From contig CBDEFO010000008.1 of the NCBI GenBank assembly GCA_965237525.1, forward strand, positions 192,001 to 256,000: a DNA stretch of 64,000 bases, read 5' to 3'. The notes beneath the pieces were generated by a model, which saw only the letters and a program-made list of their open reading frames with translations, had not been told where the DNA came from and ran no database searches. The stretch is from Candidatus Latescibacterota bacterium. Its GTDB lineage: Bacteria; Latescibacterota; CBDEFO01. This document shows positions 23,860-53,425 of this stretch, one piece after another (within the stretch, counting starts at the first letter, position 1; the number at the start of each line of letters is the position of its first letter). The translations under genes were made by a program, and so were the position numbers.

Positions 23860-23880
23860 CCCCGATAGATTCAATCGGGG
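23860..23880 (+). repeat. 21-bp palindrome CCCCGAT-AGATTCA-ATCGGGG (copy a)
   Basis: Perfect 7-bp stem; followed by an extra ATCGGGG. Confidence 0.9.
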
Positions 23881-25256: not shown

Positions 25257-25277
25257 CCCCGATAGATTCAATCGGGG
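25257..25277 (+). repeat. 21-bp palindrome (copy b)
   Basis: CCCCGATAGATTCAATCGGGG. Confidence 0.9.
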
Positions 25278-25437: not shown

Positions 25438-25458
25438 CCCCGATAGACTCAATCGGGG
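25438..25458 (+). repeat. 21-bp palindrome (copy c)
   Basis: CCCCGATAGACTCAATCGGGG followed by ATC. Confidence 0.9.
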
Positions 25459-32471: not shown

Positions 32472-32492
32472 CCCCGATAGATTCAATCGGGG
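32472..32492 (+). repeat. 21-bp palindrome (copy d)
   Basis: Exact consensus, overlapping GATC on the left. Confidence 0.9.
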
Positions 32493-35159: not shown

Positions 35160-36461
35160 GGTTATTTATCAAATGAAATCGGTGCACTTCTCTTTCGATC
35201 TTTGATTGATCTTGAATGATAGGTTTTCGACAATCTTTGGTTTCTGTTCTTTTTCAAAATGGATGTATAATTGTTCTTCTTTTAGGTTCCATTCAGCCAG
35301 GACAAAGTAGTTGGTGTAAGAGGAGGGAAGAGATACTTTCTCATTTAGGACATCGATAAAGGCTTTATCTGTCTGTTCTGTGTCCTGTTTGACTTGTCTG
35401 ATAAAATAGGTCTTGGGAATGAAATCTTTCTCGTTTGACTTCTCTTGCTTAGGTGGACGGTAGCCGGTGTATCTCTGTGATGAAAGATTAAACCATTCTA
35501 ACTTCTGATCAACTTCTTGTAAGCTTTTGAACTGAATTCTGTTCCAGAACTTCCTTGAAAATACAGAATTGTTGCCTTCTATAGATGCTTGAGAAAAGGG
35601 CCTTCTGGGAACGGCAAATATCGGAATCACTTGATTTTTCAAGAGAAACTGCATTGCTTTGCTGACATTCCTTTTACCTGAAACACTGCCAATAGTCGCC
35701 GAGCAATTGTCCACCTTAACGAAATCTGGTTTTTCAAACCTGTCAAAGAAAGACTGACACTTCTCGATAAAGTTAGTTGCTGTTTGACCGTCAACCCGCC
35801 GAAAATACCTTAACTTAGGCTCTTTCTTAAAGGAAAATCCAACGAAGTTGACCGGCTCAGTTCTGCCGGTAAGATACTTTTTACCAATAAAGTCTGATTC
35901 TAGGACTCTGCCTCCTGAAAGATAGTAAATGGTATACTCTGGATAACAAAGATAACGAGATGCACCCTTGTTTTTACCTTTCTTCCTTCTCTGGGAAAGT
36001 CCTAAATCTGAAAGCATTCTGCCGATAGTCGGCAACGACGGAGGAGGGGTGCTAGAATATCGATTCCTCCATTCTTGTTCAATAACAGTGGCTCCTGAAT
36101 AGAACTGATAAGGATCGTCCTCTAAGCTATGGTAAATCTCTTTGATTCTCTGTTCGTCAACTTTAGCCAATTTTCGCCTTTTTCCTTTTGGCCAACCCCG
36201 ATTATCTATGGCAAAATCCTGATCCGGAGATTTAGTCCAAGCTGTAACGAAATCATTGGAAACTCTCGCTTGTTTGATAACTTCTCGCTTTGACATTTCT
36301 TTCTTAAAATACATCTCGTTGACTTCTTGTCTTAATACGGCCAATCTCTCTTTGTCCATAGGACTCCGTAGATTAAAGTTAAGACAATCAACTCAACTTA
36401 ATCTACTAATACTCTAAACAAAGATCAAATTAGGTGCACCGATTTCATTTGATATTCAACC
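35160..36461 (-). mobile_element. 1302-bp IS with rve-type transposase, copy A
   Basis: ~27-bp imperfect IRs GGTT..TATCAAATGAAATCGGTGCA; 6-bp duplication GTTAGT. Confidence 0.92.
35169..36359 (-). CDS. DDE integrase-like transposase (IS481-like, family uncertain)
   Basis: ESD / VDN / SIE acidic triad; stop codon lies inside the IR. Confidence 0.8.
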   Translation of the reverse strand: MDKERLAVLRQEVNEMYFKKEMSKREVIKQARVSNDFVTAWTKSPDQDFAIDNRGWPKGKRRKLAKVDEQRIKEIYHSLEDDPYQFYSGATVIEQEWRNRYSSTPPPSLPTIGRMLSDLGLSQRRKKGKNKGASRYLCYPEYTIYYLSGGRVLESDFIGKKYLTGRTEPVNFVGFSFKKEPKLRYFRRVDGQTATNFIEKCQSFFDRFEKPDFVKVDNCSATIGSVSGKRNVSKAMQFLLKNQVIPIFAVPRRPFSQASIEGNNSVFSRKFWNRIQFKSLQEVDQKLEWFNLSSQRYTGYRPPKQEKSNEKDFIPKTYFIRQVKQDTEQTDKAFIDVLNEKVSLPSSYTNYFVLAEWNLKEEQLYIHFEKEQKPKIVENLSFKINQRSKEKCTDFI

Positions 36462-36656
36462 GTTAGTCGCTACAATGGGACGTGGACGACCTTCACCACA
36501 GAAGATGGTCTTGCGGGCGATGACGTCGTTTCCATCTTGGAGGATAGTGGGGGCAACCTGTGGTTTGGAACCGGTACGGGCGCGAGCCGTTATAATGGAG
36601 AGAGGTGGACAAGCTACACCAGTTCAAATGGTCTGACGAATAACCTGGTCTATTCG

Positions 36657-37427
36657 ATCTTGGAGGATACCGAGGGCAGCCTGTGGTTCGGAACTAACGG
36701 AGGTGCAAGCCGCTTTGATGGGACGTGGACGACCTTTACGGTGACAGATGGTCTGGCGGACAATGCGGTCAACGCAATCTTGGAGGATACTAAAGGCAAC
36801 CTGTGGTTCGGAACTAACGGAGGTGCAAGCCGCTTTGATGGGACGTGGACAACCTTTACGGTGACAGATGGCCTGGCGGACAACACGGTCAACGCAATCT
36901 TGGAGGATACTAAAGGCAACCTGTGGTTCGGAACTAACGGAGGTGCAAGCCGCTTTGATGGGACGTGGACGACCTTTACGGTGGCAGACGGCCTGGCGGA
37001 CAACACGGTCAACGCAATCTTGGAGGATACTAAAGGCAACCTGTGGTTCGGAACTAACGGAGGTGCAAGCCGCTTTGATGGGACGTGGACGACCTTTACG
37101 GTGGCAGACGGTCTGGCGGACAACACGGTCAACGCAATCTTGGAGGATACTAAAGGCAACCTGTGGTTCGGAACTAACGGAGGTGCAAGCCGCTTTGATG
37201 GGACGTGGACGACCTTTACGGTGGCAGACGGTCTGGCGGACAACACGGTCAACGCAATCTTGGAGGATACTAAAGGCAACCTGTGGTTCGGAACTAACGG
37301 AGGTGCAAGCCGCTTTGATGGGACGTGGACGACCTTTACGGTGGCAGACGGTCTGGCGGACAACACGGTCAACGCAATCTTGGAGGATACTAAAGGCAAC
37401 CTGTGGTTCGGAACTAACGGAGGTGCG
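36657..37427 (+). repeat. 120-bp coding tandem repeat, ~6.4 near-identical units
   Basis: ATCTTGGAGGATAC recurs every 120 bp. Confidence 0.95.
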
Positions 37428-40400
37428 AGTAGTTACGATGGGAAAAGGTGGACGCTCTACAAAGCTGCAGAAGATGGGCTGGGGGGAAATTGGGTCAATT
37501 CCATCGTACAAGATAGTGTGGATAACTTGTGGTTTGGGATTGGCGGGGATGTAAGGCGCGGAGGCGGCGGTGTAAGCCGCTATGATGAGATATGGACAAT
37601 CTTCAGCAAAGCTGACACCTTGGCGGACAATGAAGTCTGGACGAGCCTAAAGGATAGCCAGGGTAACTTGTGGTTTGGAACCAATGAAGGCGTCAGGCTT
37701 TATGATGGTGAAATGTGGACGGAATTCACCGAAAGCAACACAGATGTCGGCTTGGCAGACAATGTGGTGAATTCGATCTTGGAGGATAGTGAGGGGAACC
37801 TCTGGTTTGGAACTAAGGGAGGCGCAAGTCGCTACGATGGGACGTGGACAACTTACACGATATCAGATGGGCTGGCTGACAACTGGGTCAGTGCGATCTT
37901 GGAGGATAGCAAGAGAAACTTGTGGTTTGGAACTAAGGGAGGAGTTACCCGCTATGATGGGACGTGGATGAGCTTCACCACAGAGGACGGGCCGGCTGAC
38001 AACTGGGTTAAGGCAATCTTGGAGGATAGCAAGAGAAACTTGTGGTTTGGAACTGAAAGAGGAGTTACCCGCTACGATGGGACGTGGATGAGCTTCACCA
38101 CAGAGGACGGGCTGGCTGACAACTGGGTCACTTCGATTCTGGAGGACAGAGAAGGCGGCTTGTGGTTTGGAACTAATGGTGGAGGCGTCAGCCGCTATGA
38201 CGGGGAGAGATGGAGGACCTTCAACGTTGAAGATGACCTGGCAGACAATGTGGTCTGGACGATCCTGGAGGATAATGACGGTAACCTGTGGTTCAGTGGT
38301 GTGGGAGGGACAAGTAGATACAGAGTTGACAGGACGCCGCCGGACACGTTTATCTCCGAAGGTCCAGACGGCACGATCGGCGTCGGACAGGTTTTCTTCC
38401 AATATCGCGGGGGTGATAGATTCTTGCCAGACGAAGAAGTGCAGTATGCGTATGTCACCAAGAAGGATGGGGACAAGCCTGCAAGAGCCGATTGGTCCAG
38501 CTTTTCAGATATCACCTCTACCCTCACAGATCCGCTCCCCAGTGGAACCTACACTTTCTACGTTCGGACAGTGGACGAAGTTGGAAACATAGATCCCTCT
38601 CCCGCCGAAAGAACATTCACTGTGGATTTAACCCCGCCGATAGTGGGGATCAGTTCCCCATCGAGCAACGAAATTATTCATGGTAATGTAAACATTCGGG
38701 GCTCGGCCTTTGACAACTCCGATGTCCCCGATTTTACGAGCTATACGTTGGAATATGGGAGTGGCTCGGATGAGGACAAGATATCAGAATGGCTCAGGAT
38801 AAGGGATAGCGCGGTGAAGCCTGTCGTAAATGACCTTTTAGGCATGTGGGACACCGAGGGGCTATTCGGCACCTATGTTCTCCGGCTTAGAGCTGTGGAC
38901 GGCTTCGATCACAGGAGCAAGTTTGCCATCACCATCCACGTGGTTGCGGCAGCCGTTGAGGTAGATCACAGTAGTGGAGGACATATCACCGATTCAGCGA
39001 GCAAGGTGGATCTCTACATTCCCCCCAATAGTATTCCCAAGAGCACGCAGGTGACAATCACTCGCGTTGCGCTTGAAGGTGTCGCAAAGCCCTCTGCTCT
39101 GAATTTGCGCCTTATTGGGATGGCATACGATATCGGTCCGAAGGATCTTGCGGTCCTGAAACCTGCAACCTTTACGATATTCCTCAATGAAGACGACATA
39201 CAGGACGTGCCATATCTTCGGAAGTTGGCAATCTTTACCCGGTCATCTGTGGACAGTCCCTGGGAGAGAATCGGCGGCACGGTCGATGAGAGGACGGGGA
39301 GGATCACAGTAGCCCTCACACACTTTGGGAGATTTGCATTGATGGAGGATCTTTCTGCGGATGAGGGGAGTCTGTCCATTTCGGATGTGAACTGTCAGCC
39401 GAGGGTCTTTTCTCCAAAGGGAGGCGGCTACGATACCAAGACCACGATATCCTTTAATCTTGGAAGAAGGTCAGCGGTTACAGTGAAGGTTTACGATGTC
39501 TCAGGACGTTTTAAAAGGAAGTTGGTAGAGGACAGGGAAATGAATCGGGGGAGCAATGCGGTGGAATGGGATGGCAGGGATCATGAAGCGGAGGTAGTAG
39601 TAAGTGGACTCTATGTTGTGGCTGTGCAAGCTGATGGGAAGGTGGAAACTAAGACAGTGGGGGTGTTAAATAAGTGATTTCGGAACTGTGCATGCTCAAG
39701 GAACGAGGTCACAGGCAGTTGCTTTCTCGAATAGCTCTAACTGTGGTCATAGCTATTCTCCTCTACGCCACACCGGCAAGGGCACAAAGGTGGACCACCT
39801 ACACCACAGCAGATGGTCTCGCGGGAAATTCAGTCGGCGCGATCTTGGAGGATAGTGATAGCAACCTTTGGTTTGGGACTTCAGAGGGAGGTGTGAGTCG
39901 CTATGACGGGACGTGGACTACCTTCACCACAGCAGATGGCCTGACCAACAACTCGGTCAATGCGATCTTGGAGGATAGTGATAGCAACCTTTGGTTTGGC
40001 ACCGATATGGGGGTGAGCCGATATGATGGGTCGTGGACAACTTTCACCACAGAAGATGGCTTGGCGGGCGATGACGTCATTTCCATCTTGGAGGATACTG
40101 AGGGAAACCTGTGGTTTGGAACTGGTACGGGCGCGAGCCGCTATGATGGAGAGAGGTGGACAACTTACACTACATCAGATGGCCTGACGAATGACTTGGT
40201 CCATGCGATCTTGGAGGATACTAGGGGCAGCCTATGGTTTGCAACTAATGGAGGTGTAAGCCGCTTTGATGAGACGTGGACAACCTTTACGGTGACAGAT
40301 GGTCTGGCGGACAATGCGGTCTATTCGATCTTGGAGGATACTAAGGGCAATCTGTGGTTCGGAACTAACGGAGGTGCAAGCCGCTTTGATGGGACGTGGA

Positions 40401-42237
40401 CGACCTATACCGTGACCGATGGTCTGGCGGACAACAGGGTCAACGCAATCCTGGAAGATAGCGAGGGCAATTTGTGGTTTGGAACTGAGGGTGGTGCAAG
40501 CCACTATGATGGGTACAGGTGGAAGACCTACCGCACATCAGATGGCCTGGCAAACAACTTGGTCTTAACGATCTTGGGGGACAGCGAGGGCAATTTGTGG
40601 TTTGGAACTGGTGGGGGAGGAGTGAGCCGTTATAATGGGACGTGGACAACCTACGCTACAGCAGATGGCCTGGTGGACAATGGGGTCAGTGCAATTTTGG
40701 AGGATAGTGAGGGTAACTTGTGGTTTGGAACCGGTACCGGCGTGAGCCGCTTTGATGGGGACGAGTGGACGACCTACACCGCTGAAGATGGCTTGGCGCA
40801 CAACAGCGTTAATGCGATCTTGGAGGACAGAGAGGGGAGCTTGTGGTTTGGAACTAAAGGGGGCGTAAGCCGCTTTGATGGGGAAAGGTGGACAACCTAC
40901 ACCAGAACACAGATGGCCTAGCGGGCAACTGGGTCGAGGCAATCTTGGAGGATAGTGCAGGCAACCTGTGGTTTGGAACTGGTGGGGGAGGCGTGAGCCG
41001 CTTTGATGGGACGTGGGCGACCTACACTGCGACAGATGGTCTGGCGGACAACGTGGTCAATGCGATCTGGGAAGACAGTGAGAGCAACCTGTGGTTCGGA
41101 ACTGTGTCTGGCGTGAGCCGCTATGACGGAGAGCAATGGACAACCTTCACCACAGCAGATGGCCTGGCGGACGATGAAGTCAATGCGATCTTGGAGGATA
41201 GTGACGGCAACCTGTGGTTTGGAACCGGAGGAGGTGTAAGCCGCTTTGACTTGGGACATGGACAACCTATACCGTGACCGATGGGCTGGCACATAATGCG
41301 GTCAACGGCATCTTAGAGGATAGTAAAGGCAACCTGTGGTTTTTGAATGGACTTGCCGACAGAGGTGCAACACGATATGGAAGTGACAGGATACCTCCAA
41401 ACACTTTCATCTTAGATGGACCAGAAGGAATAGTCGGCACCCCACAGGCTTTCTTCCAATATAGCGGCGGTGACAGGTTTTCCCCAGGGACAGATGTGCA
41501 ATATGCTTATGCCATCAAGAGCAATCGGGATAGGCCTACTGAAGGCGATTGGTCAAACCTTTCACATTTTACCTCCCACCTTACAGATCCCTTCCCAAGC
41601 GGAACCTACACATTCTATGTAAGGTCGGCGGACAAAGCGGGAAACATCGATCCTACTCCCGCCAAAATGACCTTCACTGTGGATTTGACCCCGCCGATGG
41701 TGATGATAAATTCTCCATCCAATGACGAGATCATTCATGGGCAGGTAAACATCCTGGGCTCGGCTTTCGACAACTCCGATATTCCCGATTTTGAAAGCTA
41801 TGCGTTGGAATACGGGAGTGGATCGGATGAAAACAAGATCCTAGAATGGCGGACTATTAGGGAAGCTATGGAGCCTGTAAGGAGCCTTCTGGGCGTGTGG
41901 GACACCGAAGGGCTATTCGGCACCTATGTCCTCAGGCTCAGAGCTGTGGACGGCTTCGATCATCGGAGCAAGGACGTTATTACCGTCCACGTCGTTGCGG
42001 CAGCCGAGGTCGTGGATCCCCGTCGTGGGGGGCATATTACTGATGCGGTAAGCACGGTGGACCTCTACATCCCCCCCAACGGTATTTCCAAAAGCACCCA
42101 GGTGACGATCACTCCCGTTGCGATTGAGAGTATGACGAATCTGTCTGCTCCGAACGTACAGCTTATTGGGATGGCCTATGACATCGGTCCGCAGGGTCTT
42201 GAACTCTTGAAGCCCTCAACCTTTACGATGTCTCTTT

Positions 42238-42258
42238 CCCCTATAGAATCAATCGGGG
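42238..42258 (+). repeat. 21-bp palindrome (copy e), in-frame in coding sequence
   Basis: Encodes SPIESIG, absent from the paralog. Confidence 0.9.
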
Positions 42259-42358
42259 ATCAGGATAACATAGGGGAGTTGCCAGATCTCGGGAAATTGG
42301 CAATCTTTACTCAGTTATCTGAGGACAGTCTTTGGGAGAGGGTCGGCGGCACAGTCCT

Positions 42359-42390
42359 CCCCGATAGAATCAATCGGGGATCAATCGGGG
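42359..42390 (+). repeat. 21-bp palindrome plus half copy (copy f), in-frame in coding sequence
   Basis: Encodes LPDRINRGSIG, absent from the paralog. Confidence 0.9.
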
Positions 42391-42804
42391 ATCAGGGGGC
42401 GAGGAAGATCGCAGTAGCCCTCACACACTTTGGGAGATTTGCATTGATGGAGGATCTTTCTGATAAACAGGGGAGTCTTTCCATTTCGGATGTGAACTGC
42501 CAGCCGAGGGTCTTTTCTCCAAAGGGAGGCGGATACGACACCAAGACCACGGTATCCTTTCATCTTGGAAGAAGGTCAGCGGTTACAGTGAAGGTCTACG
42601 ATGTTTCTGGACGATTCAAGAGAAAGTTGGTCGAGGACAGGGAAATGAATCGAGGTAGCAATGCTGTCGAGTGGGACGGGAAGGATCATGAGGGAGATGT
42701 AGTGGTAAGTGGACTCTATGTGGTGGCTGTGGAGGCTGATGGGAAGGTGGAGACTAAGACAGTGGGGGTGTTGAATAAGTGATTTCATTTCAGGTCATTC
42801 TAGT

Positions 42805-43509
42805 TTAGTAGATCACCTCCTCCTGCTCGGTTCTGGCCATTTTCCCCTCGTAAAGCGATATAACCTCCCGGCTTAATGAACGCGCCTGAGAGGGATCGTG
42901 TGTTGTGAAAATGACGGTAGTATTCTCCTGCTCGTTTATATCCCTCATGAGTTCCTCTATGATATGGACGTTCTTGCTGTCTACGTTGGCGGTCGGCTCA
43001 TCTAAGAACAACACCTGAGGGCGCGCACAGATGGCCCTTGCGATCGCCGCCCTCTGTATCTCTCCTCCAGAAAGAGTTTGAGCCGCCCTCTTTTCAAAGC
43101 CTGAAAGCCCTACCATCGCAAGACACTTTGATACTCTCTCCTCTATGACATCTCCTGAAGTCTTGCGCACCTTCAATCCGTAAGCTACGTTCTTGAATAG
43201 AGTCCCCCGAAACAGAAATGGATTTTGCGCCACCAGTGTCATCAGGTTCCTGTATTCTGTCAGCTTCCCGTGGGATTTGTACACATCCTGCGACTCAAAA
43301 AGTATCTTCCCTTTAGTAGGTCGAAGGAGTAGACTCAGAATATGCAGAAATGTCGTCTTTCCCGACCCGTTGGGTCCCACAATAGCATATATCCCTCCTC
43401 TTTCGAACGAGAGATACGGAATATAGAGCCTGAAGCCCTGTGGATATGCCTTTTCAAACTCGTGAAGCTCGATTATCCCGTTCTGGACTCCTTTAGAAGT
43501 GGACGCCAC
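42805..43509 (-). CDS. tupC: Tungstate ABC transporter ATPase
   Basis: GPNGSGKT, LSGGE, LDEPTANVD; operon context. Confidence 0.82.
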   Translation of the reverse strand: MASTSKGVQNGIIELHEFEKAYPQGFRLYIPYLSFERGGIYAIVGPNGSGKTTFLHILSLLLRPTKGKILFESQDVYKSHGKLTEYRNLMTLVAQNPFLFRGTLFKNVAYGLKVRKTSGDVIEERVSKCLAMVGLSGFEKRAAQTLSGGEIQRAAIARAICARPQVLFLDEPTANVDSKNVHIIEELMRDINEQENTTVIFTTHDPSQARSLSREVISLYEGKMARTEQEEVIY

Positions 43510-43524
43510 CTTTTCTATCCTAAT

Positions 43525-43633
43525 GTAGGGGCGAACCCATGTGTTCGCCCAATAGAGACAAGGTATCCTGCAAAATCAATGTAAGGGCAGGGTCACCCCA
43601 CGGATCAGGGCAGACACACGGGTCTGCCCCTAC
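43525..43633. repeat. GTAG-type REP inverted pair
   Basis: GTAGGGGCGAACCCATGTGTTCGCCC ... GGGCAGACACACGGGTCTGCCCCTAC. Confidence 0.8.
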
Positions 43634-43647
43634 GACTGTCTACTTAT

Positions 43648-44340
43648 CTACGTCCCTTTGGACTGATAGTAGTGGAAAAGAAGATTTAGGGAAAAAGCCA
43701 CGCAAAGGAGCACTATTCCCAGCGCTATTCCGAATCCGAACTCGCCCTTGCTGGTCTCTAAAGCTATCGCCGTAGTCATTGTTCTTGTACTTCCCCTGAT
43801 ATTCCCGCCAAGCATCATAGCCGAACCGACCTCCGCGATCACCCTCCCGAATCCTGCTACGACCGCCGCTATGACGGAGAACTTAGCCTCACTGAGGACA
43901 GCCAGTGTCGCTTGAAACTCGCTCGCTCCCAAAGTTAGAGCCGTGGGCATTACCCTTTTGTCTATTCCCTGCGCCGCAGATAGAGAAAGAGCAGTTATTA
44001 TGGGCGTCGCTAAGATGAAACCCCCGATTACTATAGCTGTGGGAGTATATAAGAGTCCAAGAGATCCGAGCGGACCTCTTCGGGAGATCAGCGCATAGAT
44101 AGTCAGCCCTATAACCACTGTCGGAAGCGCCATGAGCGTGTTTAGGACCGTTACGACAGCGCGCTTTCCCCAGAAATTCCTCACTCCGATGACCAAACCC
44201 AGTGGCACACCCACAACACAGGCAAGAAGAGTGGCAGCAGACGATACCTTCAAAGAGACAAGAACCACATCGAATGTCTCCCCATCCAGCGATAAGATGA
44301 GCCAAAGGGCGCGTCGAATGCCTTCAGATATATAATCCAA
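43648..44340 (-). CDS. tupB: Tungstate ABC transporter permease
   Basis: LPTVVIGL, SRRGPLG, GFGRVIAEVG, GGNIRGSTR, ETSKGEF. Confidence 0.92.
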   Translation of the reverse strand: MDYISEGIRRALWLILSLDGETFDVVLVSLKVSSAATLLACVVGVPLGLVIGVRNFWGKRAVVTVLNTLMALPTVVIGLTIYALISRRGPLGSLGLLYTPTAIVIGGFILATPIITALSLSAAQGIDKRVMPTALTLGASEFQATLAVLSEAKFSVIAAVVAGFGRVIAEVGSAMMLGGNIRGSTRTMTTAIALETSKGEFGFGIALGIVLLCVAFSLNLLFHYYQSKGT

Positions 44341-44422
44341 CCTTTGTCTCCAGGGTCATCCACGAAGCGAAGCTTAGCCACAAAGACACAAAACCTCAAA
44401 CCTTAATATGTTTGGACCTTGT

Positions 44423-44443
44423 CCCCGATTGAATCTATCCGGA
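44423..44443 (-). repeat. 21-bp palindrome (copy g, degenerate)
   Basis: CCCCGATTGAATCTATCCGGA inside an AGCCAC...GTGGCT hairpin. Confidence 0.75.
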
Positions 44444-44462
44444 TTTGGTGGCTGAAGCGCCT

Positions 44463-45308
44463 TTACATTTTCCTGTCATAAGGGTGGAAGATCGTCTGTC
44501 CACCTACTCTAAAATCCTCTATTATCTTCTGCCCCTGTGGCGAGGTCATCCAGCCTATCAGCGCCATAGAATAGACATAGTTTACGTGGGGGTGAATACT
44601 CGGATTGATCGCTATGACTCCGTAGGGGTTGAACAACGCAGAGTCGCCTTCAAACAACACCACAATATCAACTTTTCGCGAATACGCAAGGAGTGTTCCT
44701 CTATCAATCAGGACGTAGGCCCCCTTCTCATCTGCTATCTGAAGCGTAGCCCCCATGCCCTGACCCGTCTCTATGTACCATTTTCCCGTCCGCGACCCCG
44801 GATTGAATCTATTGGGGGTCAATCGGGGATCTACCCCAGCCTTTTCCCATATCTCCATCTCCTTTTTATGAGTCCCGGAGTCGTCTGCTCTGGAGGCAAA
44901 AAGGGAGTTCTTTTCAAATATCCTCTTCATCGCCGAGAGAGCATCAGAGGTTTGAGCTATCCCAGCAGGGTCATCTCTTGGACCTGCTATCACAAAGTTG
45001 TTGTACATTACATCTCGTCTGTTGACCCCGAAGGCCTTTTCTGCGAAGTCTTCCTCGGCTTTCCTTGCATGCACGAGCACGACATCAACATCTCCGTTCT
45101 CCCCCAACTTTAGCGCTTTCCCCGTCCCCACAGCTATTACATCCACCTTAACACCAAATAGTTTCTCAAAAGGAGGGAGTAGCTCTAAAAGGAGACCTGA
45201 ATTTTCGGTACTCGTGGTCGTTGCAAGCTTTATTCTCTCTTGGGCATCCGCCGGAGACCATAAAAGGGTACAGATCAAAAGGAGGCTAATGGCTGCTATA
45301 ACCCTCAT
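44463..45308 (-). CDS. tupA: Tungstate-binding protein with palindrome-derived insertion
   Basis: ATTTSTENSGLL, VGTGKAL, SRADDSGTH, GQGMG. Confidence 0.93.
   Translation of the reverse strand: MRVIAAISLLLICTLLWSPADAQERIKLATTTSTENSGLLLELLPPFEKLFGVKVDVIAVGTGKALKLGENGDVDVVLVHARKAEEDFAEKAFGVNRRDVMYNNFVIAGPRDDPAGIAQTSDALSAMKRIFEKNSLFASRADDSGTHKKEMEIWEKAGVDPRLTPNRFNPGSRTGKWYIETGQGMGATLQIADEKGAYVLIDRGTLLAYSRKVDIVVLFEGDSALFNPYGVIAINPSIHPHVNYVYSMALIGWMTSPQGQKIIEDFRVGGQTIFHPYDRKM
44794..44828 (-). repeat. Palindrome plus half copy (copy h), in-frame inside tupA
   Basis: GACCCCGGATTGAATCTATTGGGGGTCAATCGGGG then ATC; encodes PRLTPNRFNPGS. Confidence 0.85.
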
Positions 45309-52123: not shown

Positions 52124-53425
52124 GGTTGAATATCAAATGAAATCGGTGCAACTAATTTGATCTTTGTTTAGAGTATTAGTAGATTAAGTTGAGTTGATTG
52201 TCTTAACTTTAATCTACGGAGTCCTATGGACAAAGAGAGATTGGCCGTATTAAGACAAGAAGTCAACGAGATGTATTTTAAGAAAGAAATGTCAAAGCGA
52301 GAAGTTATCAAACAAGCGAGAGTTTCCAATGATTTCGTTACGGCTTGGACTAAATCTCTGGATCAGGATTTTGCCATAGATAATCGGGGTTGGCCAAAAG
52401 GAAAAAGGCGAAAATTGGCTAAAGTTGACGAACAGAGAATCAAAGAGATTTACCATAGCTTAGAGGACGATCCTTATCAGTTCTATTCAGGAGCCACTGT
52501 TATTGAACAAGAATGGAGGAATCGATATTCTAGCACCCCTCCTCCGTCGTTGCCGACTATCGGCAGAATGCTTTCAGATTTAGGACTTTCCCAGAGAAGG
52601 AAGAAAGGTAAAAACAAGGGTGCATCTCGTTATCTTTGTTATCCAGAGTATACCATTTACTATCTTTCAGGAGGCAGAGTCCTAGAATCAGACTTTATTG
52701 GTAAAAAGTATCTTACCGGCAGAACTGAGCCGGTCAACTTCGTTGGATTTTCCTTTAAGAAAGAGCCTAAGTTAAGGTATTTTCGGCGGGTTGACGGTCA
52801 AACAGCAACTAACTTTATCGAGAAGTGTCAGTCTTTCTTTGACAGGTTTGAAAAACCAGATTTCGTTAAGGTGGACAATTGCTCGGCGACTATTGGCAGT
52901 GTTTCAGGTAAAAGGAATGTCAGCAAAGCAATGCAGTTTCTCTTGAAAAATCAAGTGATTCCGATATTTGCCGTTCCCAGAAGGCCCTTTTCTCAAGCAT
53001 CTATAGAAGGCAACAATTCTGTATTTTCAAGGAAGTTCTGGAACAGAATTCAGTTCAAAAGCTTACAAGAAGTTGATCAGAAGTTAGAATGGTTTAATCT
53101 TTCATCACAGAGATACACCGGCTACCGTCCACCTAAGCAAGAGAAGTCAAACGAGAAAGATTTCATTCCCAAGACCTATTTTATCAGACAAGTCAAACAG
53201 GACACAGAACAGACAGATAAAGCCTTTATCGATGTCCTAAATGAGAAAGTATCTCTTCCCTCCTCTTACACCAACTACTTTGTCCTGGCTGAATGGAACC
53301 TAAAAGAAGAACAATTATACATCCATTTTGAAAAAGAACAGAAACCAAAGATTGTCGAAAACCTATCATTCAAGATCAATCAAAGATCGAAAGAGAAGTG
53401 CACCGATTTCATTTGATAAATAACC
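52124..53425 (+). mobile_element. 1302-bp IS, copy B
   Basis: Same IRs as copy A; 6-bp duplication ATTAGA. Confidence 0.92.
52226..53416 (+). CDS. DDE integrase-like transposase
   Basis: Near-identical to 35169..36359 (P/L change seen at TKSxD). Confidence 0.8.
   Translation: MDKERLAVLRQEVNEMYFKKEMSKREVIKQARVSNDFVTAWTKSLDQDFAIDNRGWPKGKRRKLAKVDEQRIKEIYHSLEDDPYQFYSGATVIEQEWRNRYSSTPPPSLPTIGRMLSDLGLSQRRKKGKNKGASRYLCYPEYTIYYLSGGRVLESDFIGKKYLTGRTEPVNFVGFSFKKEPKLRYFRRVDGQTATNFIEKCQSFFDRFEKPDFVKVDNCSATIGSVSGKRNVSKAMQFLLKNQVIPIFAVPRRPFSQASIEGNNSVFSRKFWNRIQFKSLQEVDQKLEWFNLSSQRYTGYRPPKQEKSNEKDFIPKTYFIRQVKQDTEQTDKAFIDVLNEKVSLPSSYTNYFVLAEWNLKEEQLYIHFEKEQKPKIVENLSFKINQRSKEKCTDFI

Follow-up and report, generated by a model that had tools for sequence, protein, structure and literature searches.

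The SDR elements of the Nostocaceae reportedly measure 21-27 nt and share a hairpin structure. As far as the available text of two papers goes, SDRs are very small, dispersed mobile repeats with 21- and 27-nt forms, a short preferred insertion site and no known enzyme, and no mechanism of movement is given there (PMC5861425, PMC4390886); the insertion of SDR5 is called precise and falls between bases 3 and 4 of HIP1 (PMC4390886). The accessible parts of other sources describe REPs and REPINs, which go with RAYT proteins, as 20-40-bp palindromes tagged with GTAG or CGTC and present in hundreds per genome (PMC3733652, PMC8266576); RAYTs cleave and strand-transfer single-stranded hairpins (PMC8266576), and CGTC REPs have been reported without a dedicated transposase (PMC3733652). 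In similarly partial texts, Ssn nucleases are presented together with NTS/dRS3 repeats (PMC11893778) and the Rickettsia palindromic elements (RPE) as sequences of about 105-146 bp that lie in frame in genes and are translated as loops (PMC3184786, PMC3733652).

The locus analyzed here lies in a stretch of 64,000 nucleotides from a Candidatus Latescibacterota genome (the window, to which all plain positions refer; the genome is designated G000). Two tandem paralogs at 36537-39677 and 39674-42782 encode propeller-repeat proteins that end in Y_Y_Y/Ig, ZU5-like and FlgD-Ig domains. The upstream paralog (36537..39677, plus strand, 1046 aa) is empty at both sites discussed below. The downstream, host gene starts at 39674 and has, in this assembly, two frameshifts (at about 40905 and 41250) upstream of a plus-strand C-terminal piece (41274..42782) that holds the Y_Y_Y/Ig, ZU5-like and FlgD-Ig domains; public contigs of X1 and X2 are 2 bases shorter at 41250, which would remove the second frameshift. 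Codon alignment upheld the earlier note's reading of two inserts in the host gene, both on the plus strand: a net gain of 21 nt at 42237..42257, encoding SPIESIG where the upstream paralog reads IFL-NEDD, and a net gain of 33 nt at 42357..42389, encoding LPDRINRGSIG where it reads GGTV-DERT. As had also been stated, the inserts are read in different frames; their repeat cores (42238-42258 and 42359-42379) lie 121 bp apart, and neither site bears a target duplication. The empty counterparts in the upstream paralog are, on the plus strand, 39180..39195 for site 1 (junction 39185|39186) and 39279..39290 for site 2, where CG (39284-39285) stands between five bases on each side, in agreement with the common CG-centred target of the repeat.

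Comparison with relatives indicates that the inserts were gained. They are absent from six of the eight copies of the domain in G000 and the compared part of its congener G001, among them a 56%-identical paralog that is the most divergent of the eight, and their only carriers are the G000 gene and its G001 ortholog. Outgroup homologs with the inserts, which the earlier note would have taken as a sign of deletion in the other paralog, were not found in any of 61 aligned homolog rows (one misaligned, one stopping before site 2 and five being G000 or G001 proteins). These are two real insertions by a very small mobile hairpin. Since hairpins promote deletion, the inserts might be thought ancestral and lost from the other paralog, or else dismissed as assembly errors. 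We give that reading virtually no credence: the paralog and homolog comparisons above refute it, as do the contigs, the inserts being found in G001 and in contigs of two studies. One contig of X1, which may be the source sample, covers both inserts with 0 differences to G000, and one of X6, from a separate study, runs through them without a gap at 15 differences; one X6 joint skips insert 2 and is most likely paralog-derived. This public evidence consists of assembled contigs, a level at which rare empty alleles are invisible.

The G001 ortholog of the host gene is a single intact ORF of 1032 aa that carries both inserts, so that both are tolerated by a gene of full length and are older than the split of G000 and G001. 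Both fall in loops of an AlphaFold2 model of the ZU5-like domain (mean pLDDT 90), in which the insert residues, 83-89 and 123-133, form predicted coils between strands with a local pLDDT of 66-77; the best fold matches of the modelled domain are the ZU5 domains of ankyrin and UNC5b (E 6e-8).

Both inserts contain one and the same 21-nt near-palindrome, which is a hairpin repeat dispersed throughout the genome. What escaped the earlier note is that they almost certainly belong to a family of tiny mobile hairpins. With up to 3 mismatches allowed, the 21-mer matches eight places in the window and none in 100 shuffles. Apart from the host gene, copies lie on the plus strand at 23860..23880 (consensus), 25257..25277, 25438..25458 (a loop variant) and 32472..32492, and on the minus strand at 44423..44443 (degenerate, intergenic) and 44797..44817 (degenerate, and in frame in the 281-aa ORF 44463-45308, where it reads TPNRFNPG). 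The whole of G000 holds 117 exact copies; the number rises to 552 when 3 mismatches are allowed and to 603 with 4, whereas scrambled sequences give 0-1. A search with one pattern returned 374 matches in G000, 360 in G001 and none in 39 other genomes of the phylum. Beyond the congeners, a scan of species genomes gave at least 56 stretches with the repeat among the matches listed, 44 of them from one Latescibacterota-titled record, 10 labelled Deltaproteobacteria, 1 Thermodesulfobacteriota and 1 Nanoarchaeia; the last, a single copy on a 3.5-kb contig that may be mis-binned, is excluded from our arguments. The exact 21-mer was also found in 96 metagenome stretches, many of which are redundant and whose G+C content spans 37-65%, and in none of the viral contigs searched. 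An Rfam search of 42100-44900 gave no match, and no description of the family was found in the literature searched, which did not extend to subscription papers.

The hairpin formed by the 21-mer has a stem of 7 bp and a loop of 7 nt (-6.9 kcal/mol, z -2.7). Its stem pair 5-17, the only informative inner pair, keeps its pairing in all six double changes, and the pair of bases flanking the hairpin covaries as well. In 205 independent loci, as delimited by single-linkage clustering, which over-merges, these terminal bases are Y (95%) and R (96%) and form part of a loose YYNRY|RYNRR motif; they are complementary to each other at 162 of the loci, where permutations reached at most 129. Insert 1 has one stem mismatch, which its G001 counterpart does not share. 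The 33-nt insert, treated in the earlier note as one unit, is in fact composite, consisting of 2 extra bases, the full core and the 11-nt right half of a second copy (42380-42390). Both inserts have the rarer loop variant, seen in 22 of the 205 loci, and each is followed, three bases downstream, by a C in place of the G or A of the empty relatives; these shared features point to a common or local donor.

With regard to target choice, the earlier note had placed both inserts directly 5' of GATC-AGG. This is true of G000, where the G of the motif is either the last base of the repeat or a target G, but not of G001, whose site 1 reads GAGCAGG, and the motif fails as a general insertion context: GATC stands at a junction of only 58 of the 205 independent copies and ATCAGG at 2, while empty site 2, which reads GTCGATGAG, has no GATC. 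GATC was accordingly rejected as the target. No over-represented palindromic hexamer of the HIP1 kind is enriched in the genome (highest ratio 1.1).

Among the described systems, the repeat works like the SDR elements of cyanobacteria, but with imprecise junctions. Like these, it is dispersed in many copies of less than 30 nt (552 of the 21-mer), with forms of 21 and 27 nt, a short preferred site and no known enzyme; its mobility is seen in empty and filled orthologous sites, and its hairpin is conserved with compensatory changes, a feature reportedly shared by SDRs and seen here at the one informative inner pair. The host phyla differ, however, and the repeat departs from SDR5 in its loose YYNRY-NN-RYNRR target, in usually replacing two bases and overwriting their neighbours, and in net lengths of 18 to 33. 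The likeness is one of size, hairpin and mobility. REPs and REPINs resemble it, as far as the available text describes them, in being palindromes present in hundreds per genome, mostly intergenic and sometimes in frame in genes (PMC3733652, PMC8266576). Unlike REPs, the repeat has no terminal GTAG or CGTC tag, its flank profiles showing Y/R preferences only; unlike REPINs, it occurs as single units instead of inverted dimers, and both REP types as well as its own copies serve as its targets. With NTS/dRS3 it has in common a short hairpin with C-rich and G-rich arms, as these are portrayed in the accessible part of PMC11893778. Finally, it is like RPE in bringing palindromic DNA in frame into genes, but it is 21 bases long compared with about 105-146 bp, and the copies found in frame are a minority left by filtering, most events causing frameshifts.

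G000 and G001 can be compared over 2.4 of the 4.5 Mb of G001, at about 95% identity, and more than 100 differing sites between them allow the junction rules to be read directly. Among G000 copies with a G001 ortholog, the full copy is absent from G001 in 69 of 238; in the opposite direction, 204 of the 313 copies found in G001 could be compared and 43 lack a full copy in G000. Polarity is fixed by outgroups at only a few sites. G001 has at least one lineage-specific insert, which neither the ortholog nor two paralogs contain. In one case the same codon position is filled in different paralogs in the two genomes (G000 C8:1372288; L121:14047 and L121:17135). From 122 non-redundant pairs with a gain of at least 5 nt, the removal of nested pairs and of 10 with poor flanks left 54 clean empty/filled pairs, in which the net gain is 19 nt in 14 cases, 27 in 11, 20 in 10 (mostly from one REPIN-like family), 18 in 6 and 21 in 3, with other values making up the rest; net event lengths range from 18 to 33 overall.

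In the commonest, +19 event, the 21-mer stands in place of two target bases, which are CG in 8 of 14 cases. A constant target-site duplication, as in MITEs, was thus rejected. Bases next to the junction are altered as well: in 10 non-redundant +19 events, 11 of the 60 positions up to 3 nt away are mismatched, compared with 8 of 300 at a distance of 11-25 nt. The 93 filled/filled pairs show no such excess (7.2% vs 7.6%), so that the overwriting of junction bases belongs to the insertion event itself. Longer events, those of the +27 class, bring in bases that are absent from the target, often as an RCAGG tail that the empty allele lacks at that place. Of 15 events of +24 to +28, 6 have this tail, compared with 11 of 410 flank 5-mers (the events were read by eye, after two doubtful paralog rows had been left out). 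A gain of 12 was found in 9 of 33 non-coding events nested in older copies, and given this frequency we infer that insert 2 may have arisen in two in-frame steps, first +21 and then +12. Short direct repeats of at least 4 nt flank 36 of the 205 loci, against 10 expected, in mixed geometries, and some events may therefore duplicate their target. CG-centred empty sites could in principle also result from deletion of the inner 19 nt. The junction anatomy of a 21-nt hairpin repeat is what is new here, and its rules, by which an insertion replaces two bases, overwrites their neighbours, carries flanks along and is filtered by frame, separate models of cutting and rejoining from models of annealing and copying.

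The effect of the reading frame is apparent from the length changes in genes called with a simple hexamer model made for this analysis: 18 of 20 are multiples of three, the two exceptions being weak gene calls, compared with 27 of 75 outside genes. Only 74 of the 603 copies lie inside called genes, although these cover 71% of the genome. The repeat has stops in two of six frames, and the genic copies all lie in the four open ones, partly by construction. An in-frame length, as in the two inserts first noticed, is thus not typical; given that the commonest event is +19, the in-frame lengths in genes are survivors of selection and not design. Even so, at least 74 called genes of a single genome have received loops from such repeats.

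Taken together, the two-base replacement, the overwritten neighbours, the carried tails, the variable lengths, the Y-R terminal pair and the preference for repeats fit copying guided by short pairing better than fixed cut-and-paste. The hairpin is gained and lost between relatives and, on balance, we think it probable that it spreads by annealing and copying, without a transposase of its own; if so, it would rank among the smallest mobile DNAs and would supply proteins with new loops. A particular course for this process can be proposed, to which we attach somewhat less than even confidence. A donor strand would fold out its hairpin from a single strand, and its short flanks, brought together by the folded hairpin, would pair with the target across about two skipped bases. 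Three-way junctions with two unpaired bases have added stability, and pairing across the two-base bulge would create such a junction. Hairpin and flanks would then be copied into the target. The substrate would be single-stranded DNA at forks or gaps and the agents host repair and replication enzymes, with a hairpin nuclease possibly releasing donors. Sharing of both flanks between independent loci exceeds expectation only modestly (39 vs 22.5, p=0.002), largely in one heptamer-repeat context, and a summed-match measure of flank sharing shows no excess (98 vs 98), which counts against annealing. We regard as doubtful the stronger view that the 21-23-base hairpin is a self-templating parasite, with neither an element-encoded nor a dedicated enzyme, that bridges a two-base gap, is copied by the host, and carries or overwrites flanks; if true, a self-templating hairpin would cross phyla with its sequence intact and seed new protein loops.

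No mobiliser common to G000 and G001 was found among RAYT, Ssn, reverse transcriptase (RT), IS110, integron integrase and Ku. The candidate with most in its favor, a RAYT (a REP-associated tyrosine transposase of the HUH type) or an Ssn-type GIY-YIG hairpin nuclease that would cut and rejoin the hairpin as a non-autonomous passenger, has genes to point to in G000. A RAYT-like gene at C8:1476118-1476648 is flanked by GTAG REPs, one of which contains a copy of the repeat 68 bp downstream of the gene, and a small Ssn-like GIY-YIG gene at C4:479836-480159 is bracketed by SRM-type hairpins within a local duplication. Moreover, the known action of RAYTs on single-stranded hairpins (PMC8266576, in its available text) would suit such a role, three other carriers of the repeat have 3-15 RAYT matches, and, among 518 non-coding copies, about 23% have a GTAG/heptamer tag nearby and 24% a CGTC tag, compared with 4% and 2% in controls, a 6- to 10-fold enrichment. 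On the other hand, both G000 genes are flanked by repeats of their own, different from this one, which bears neither tag and has variable junctions. Profile searches are no more favorable: IS200/RAYT PF01797 has 0 matches in G000 and G001, and RAYT NF047646 has one, below the cut-off, in G000 and none in G001, a single contig 98% complete with about 360 copies of the repeat. G001 also lacks a short GIY-YIG match and, at the orthologous site (L134:6500-6630), the RAYT-like gene, so that an entire REP-transposase unit has recently been gained or lost. RAYT matches occur, in turn, in 23 of the 39 repeat-free relatives. A recent loss of the mobiliser in G001 is possible; all the same, we consider a RAYT or Ssn-type mover improbable.

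Alternatively, the hairpin might be transcribed and its RNA, paired to the target through short flanks, copied back by an RT. This would equally account for spread by copying in, for carried flanks and for the conservation of pairing, and RT matches are present in G001 and G042. They are missing from G000, the genome with most lineage-specific copies, and from G041 and G044, both of which may be incomplete; this and the lack of Rfam matches near the insert sites make such a route quite unlikely. IS110 was found, among the genomes checked, only in G000 and G042, an integron integrase over the cut-off only in G042, and Ku in none of five genomes. The distribution of the repeat bears on a further alternative, namely that an unrecognized, horizontally moving family of recombinases or nucleases is dedicated to it. 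The same 21-mer in Latescibacterota, Deltaproteobacteria-labelled and Thermodesulfobacteriota genomes, on contigs of such disparate G+C content and in none of the 39 relatives, would be accounted for in this way, and its identity in distant taxa is more readily explained by a specific and perhaps mobile protein than by host enzymes of a general kind, which tells against annealing and copying. Yet the neighbours at the 96 metagenome loci, in clusters judged by eye, reduce to redundant strains and housekeeping genes, and no recurrent transposase-like neighbour was seen; such a family strikes us as very unlikely, and annealing and copying remains the preferred reading.

Several minor observations concern other repeats and rearrangements. 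Copies of the repeat are often nested in one another. Next to the copy at C4:17351 of G000, 12 bp of unique flank are duplicated in inverted orientation without a mismatch, and inverted flank duplications of at least 4 bp occur at 11 of the 205 loci (4.5 expected), suggesting occasional fold-back copying. At C8:1387677 of G000 the loop orientation is reversed in G001, the only such case among 93 shared copies, as by a micro-inversion between the arms. In a CGTC-type REPIN-like family (G000 C2:17978-18086 and about 36 similar places) the hairpin always sits at the same two positions, with a loop variant specific to each, and orthologous units in G001 are often empty; either homogenization by conversion or repeated insertion would account for the pattern. 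Within the window, two GTAG-tagged REP-like hairpins stand in inverted arrangement at 43525-43640, between ABC transporter genes, the genes at 42805-45308 being presumably those of a tungstate transporter, and two near-identical 396-aa minus-strand ORFs in low-G+C DNA (35169-36359 and 52226-53416) are probably copies of an insertion sequence. Finally, some Deltaproteobacteria-labelled genomes have a TGTC-tagged repeat whose stem is a near-identical hairpin, and in G041 (L022:240-380) a free copy of the hairpin lies between two such repeats, which points to a possible origin of the element.
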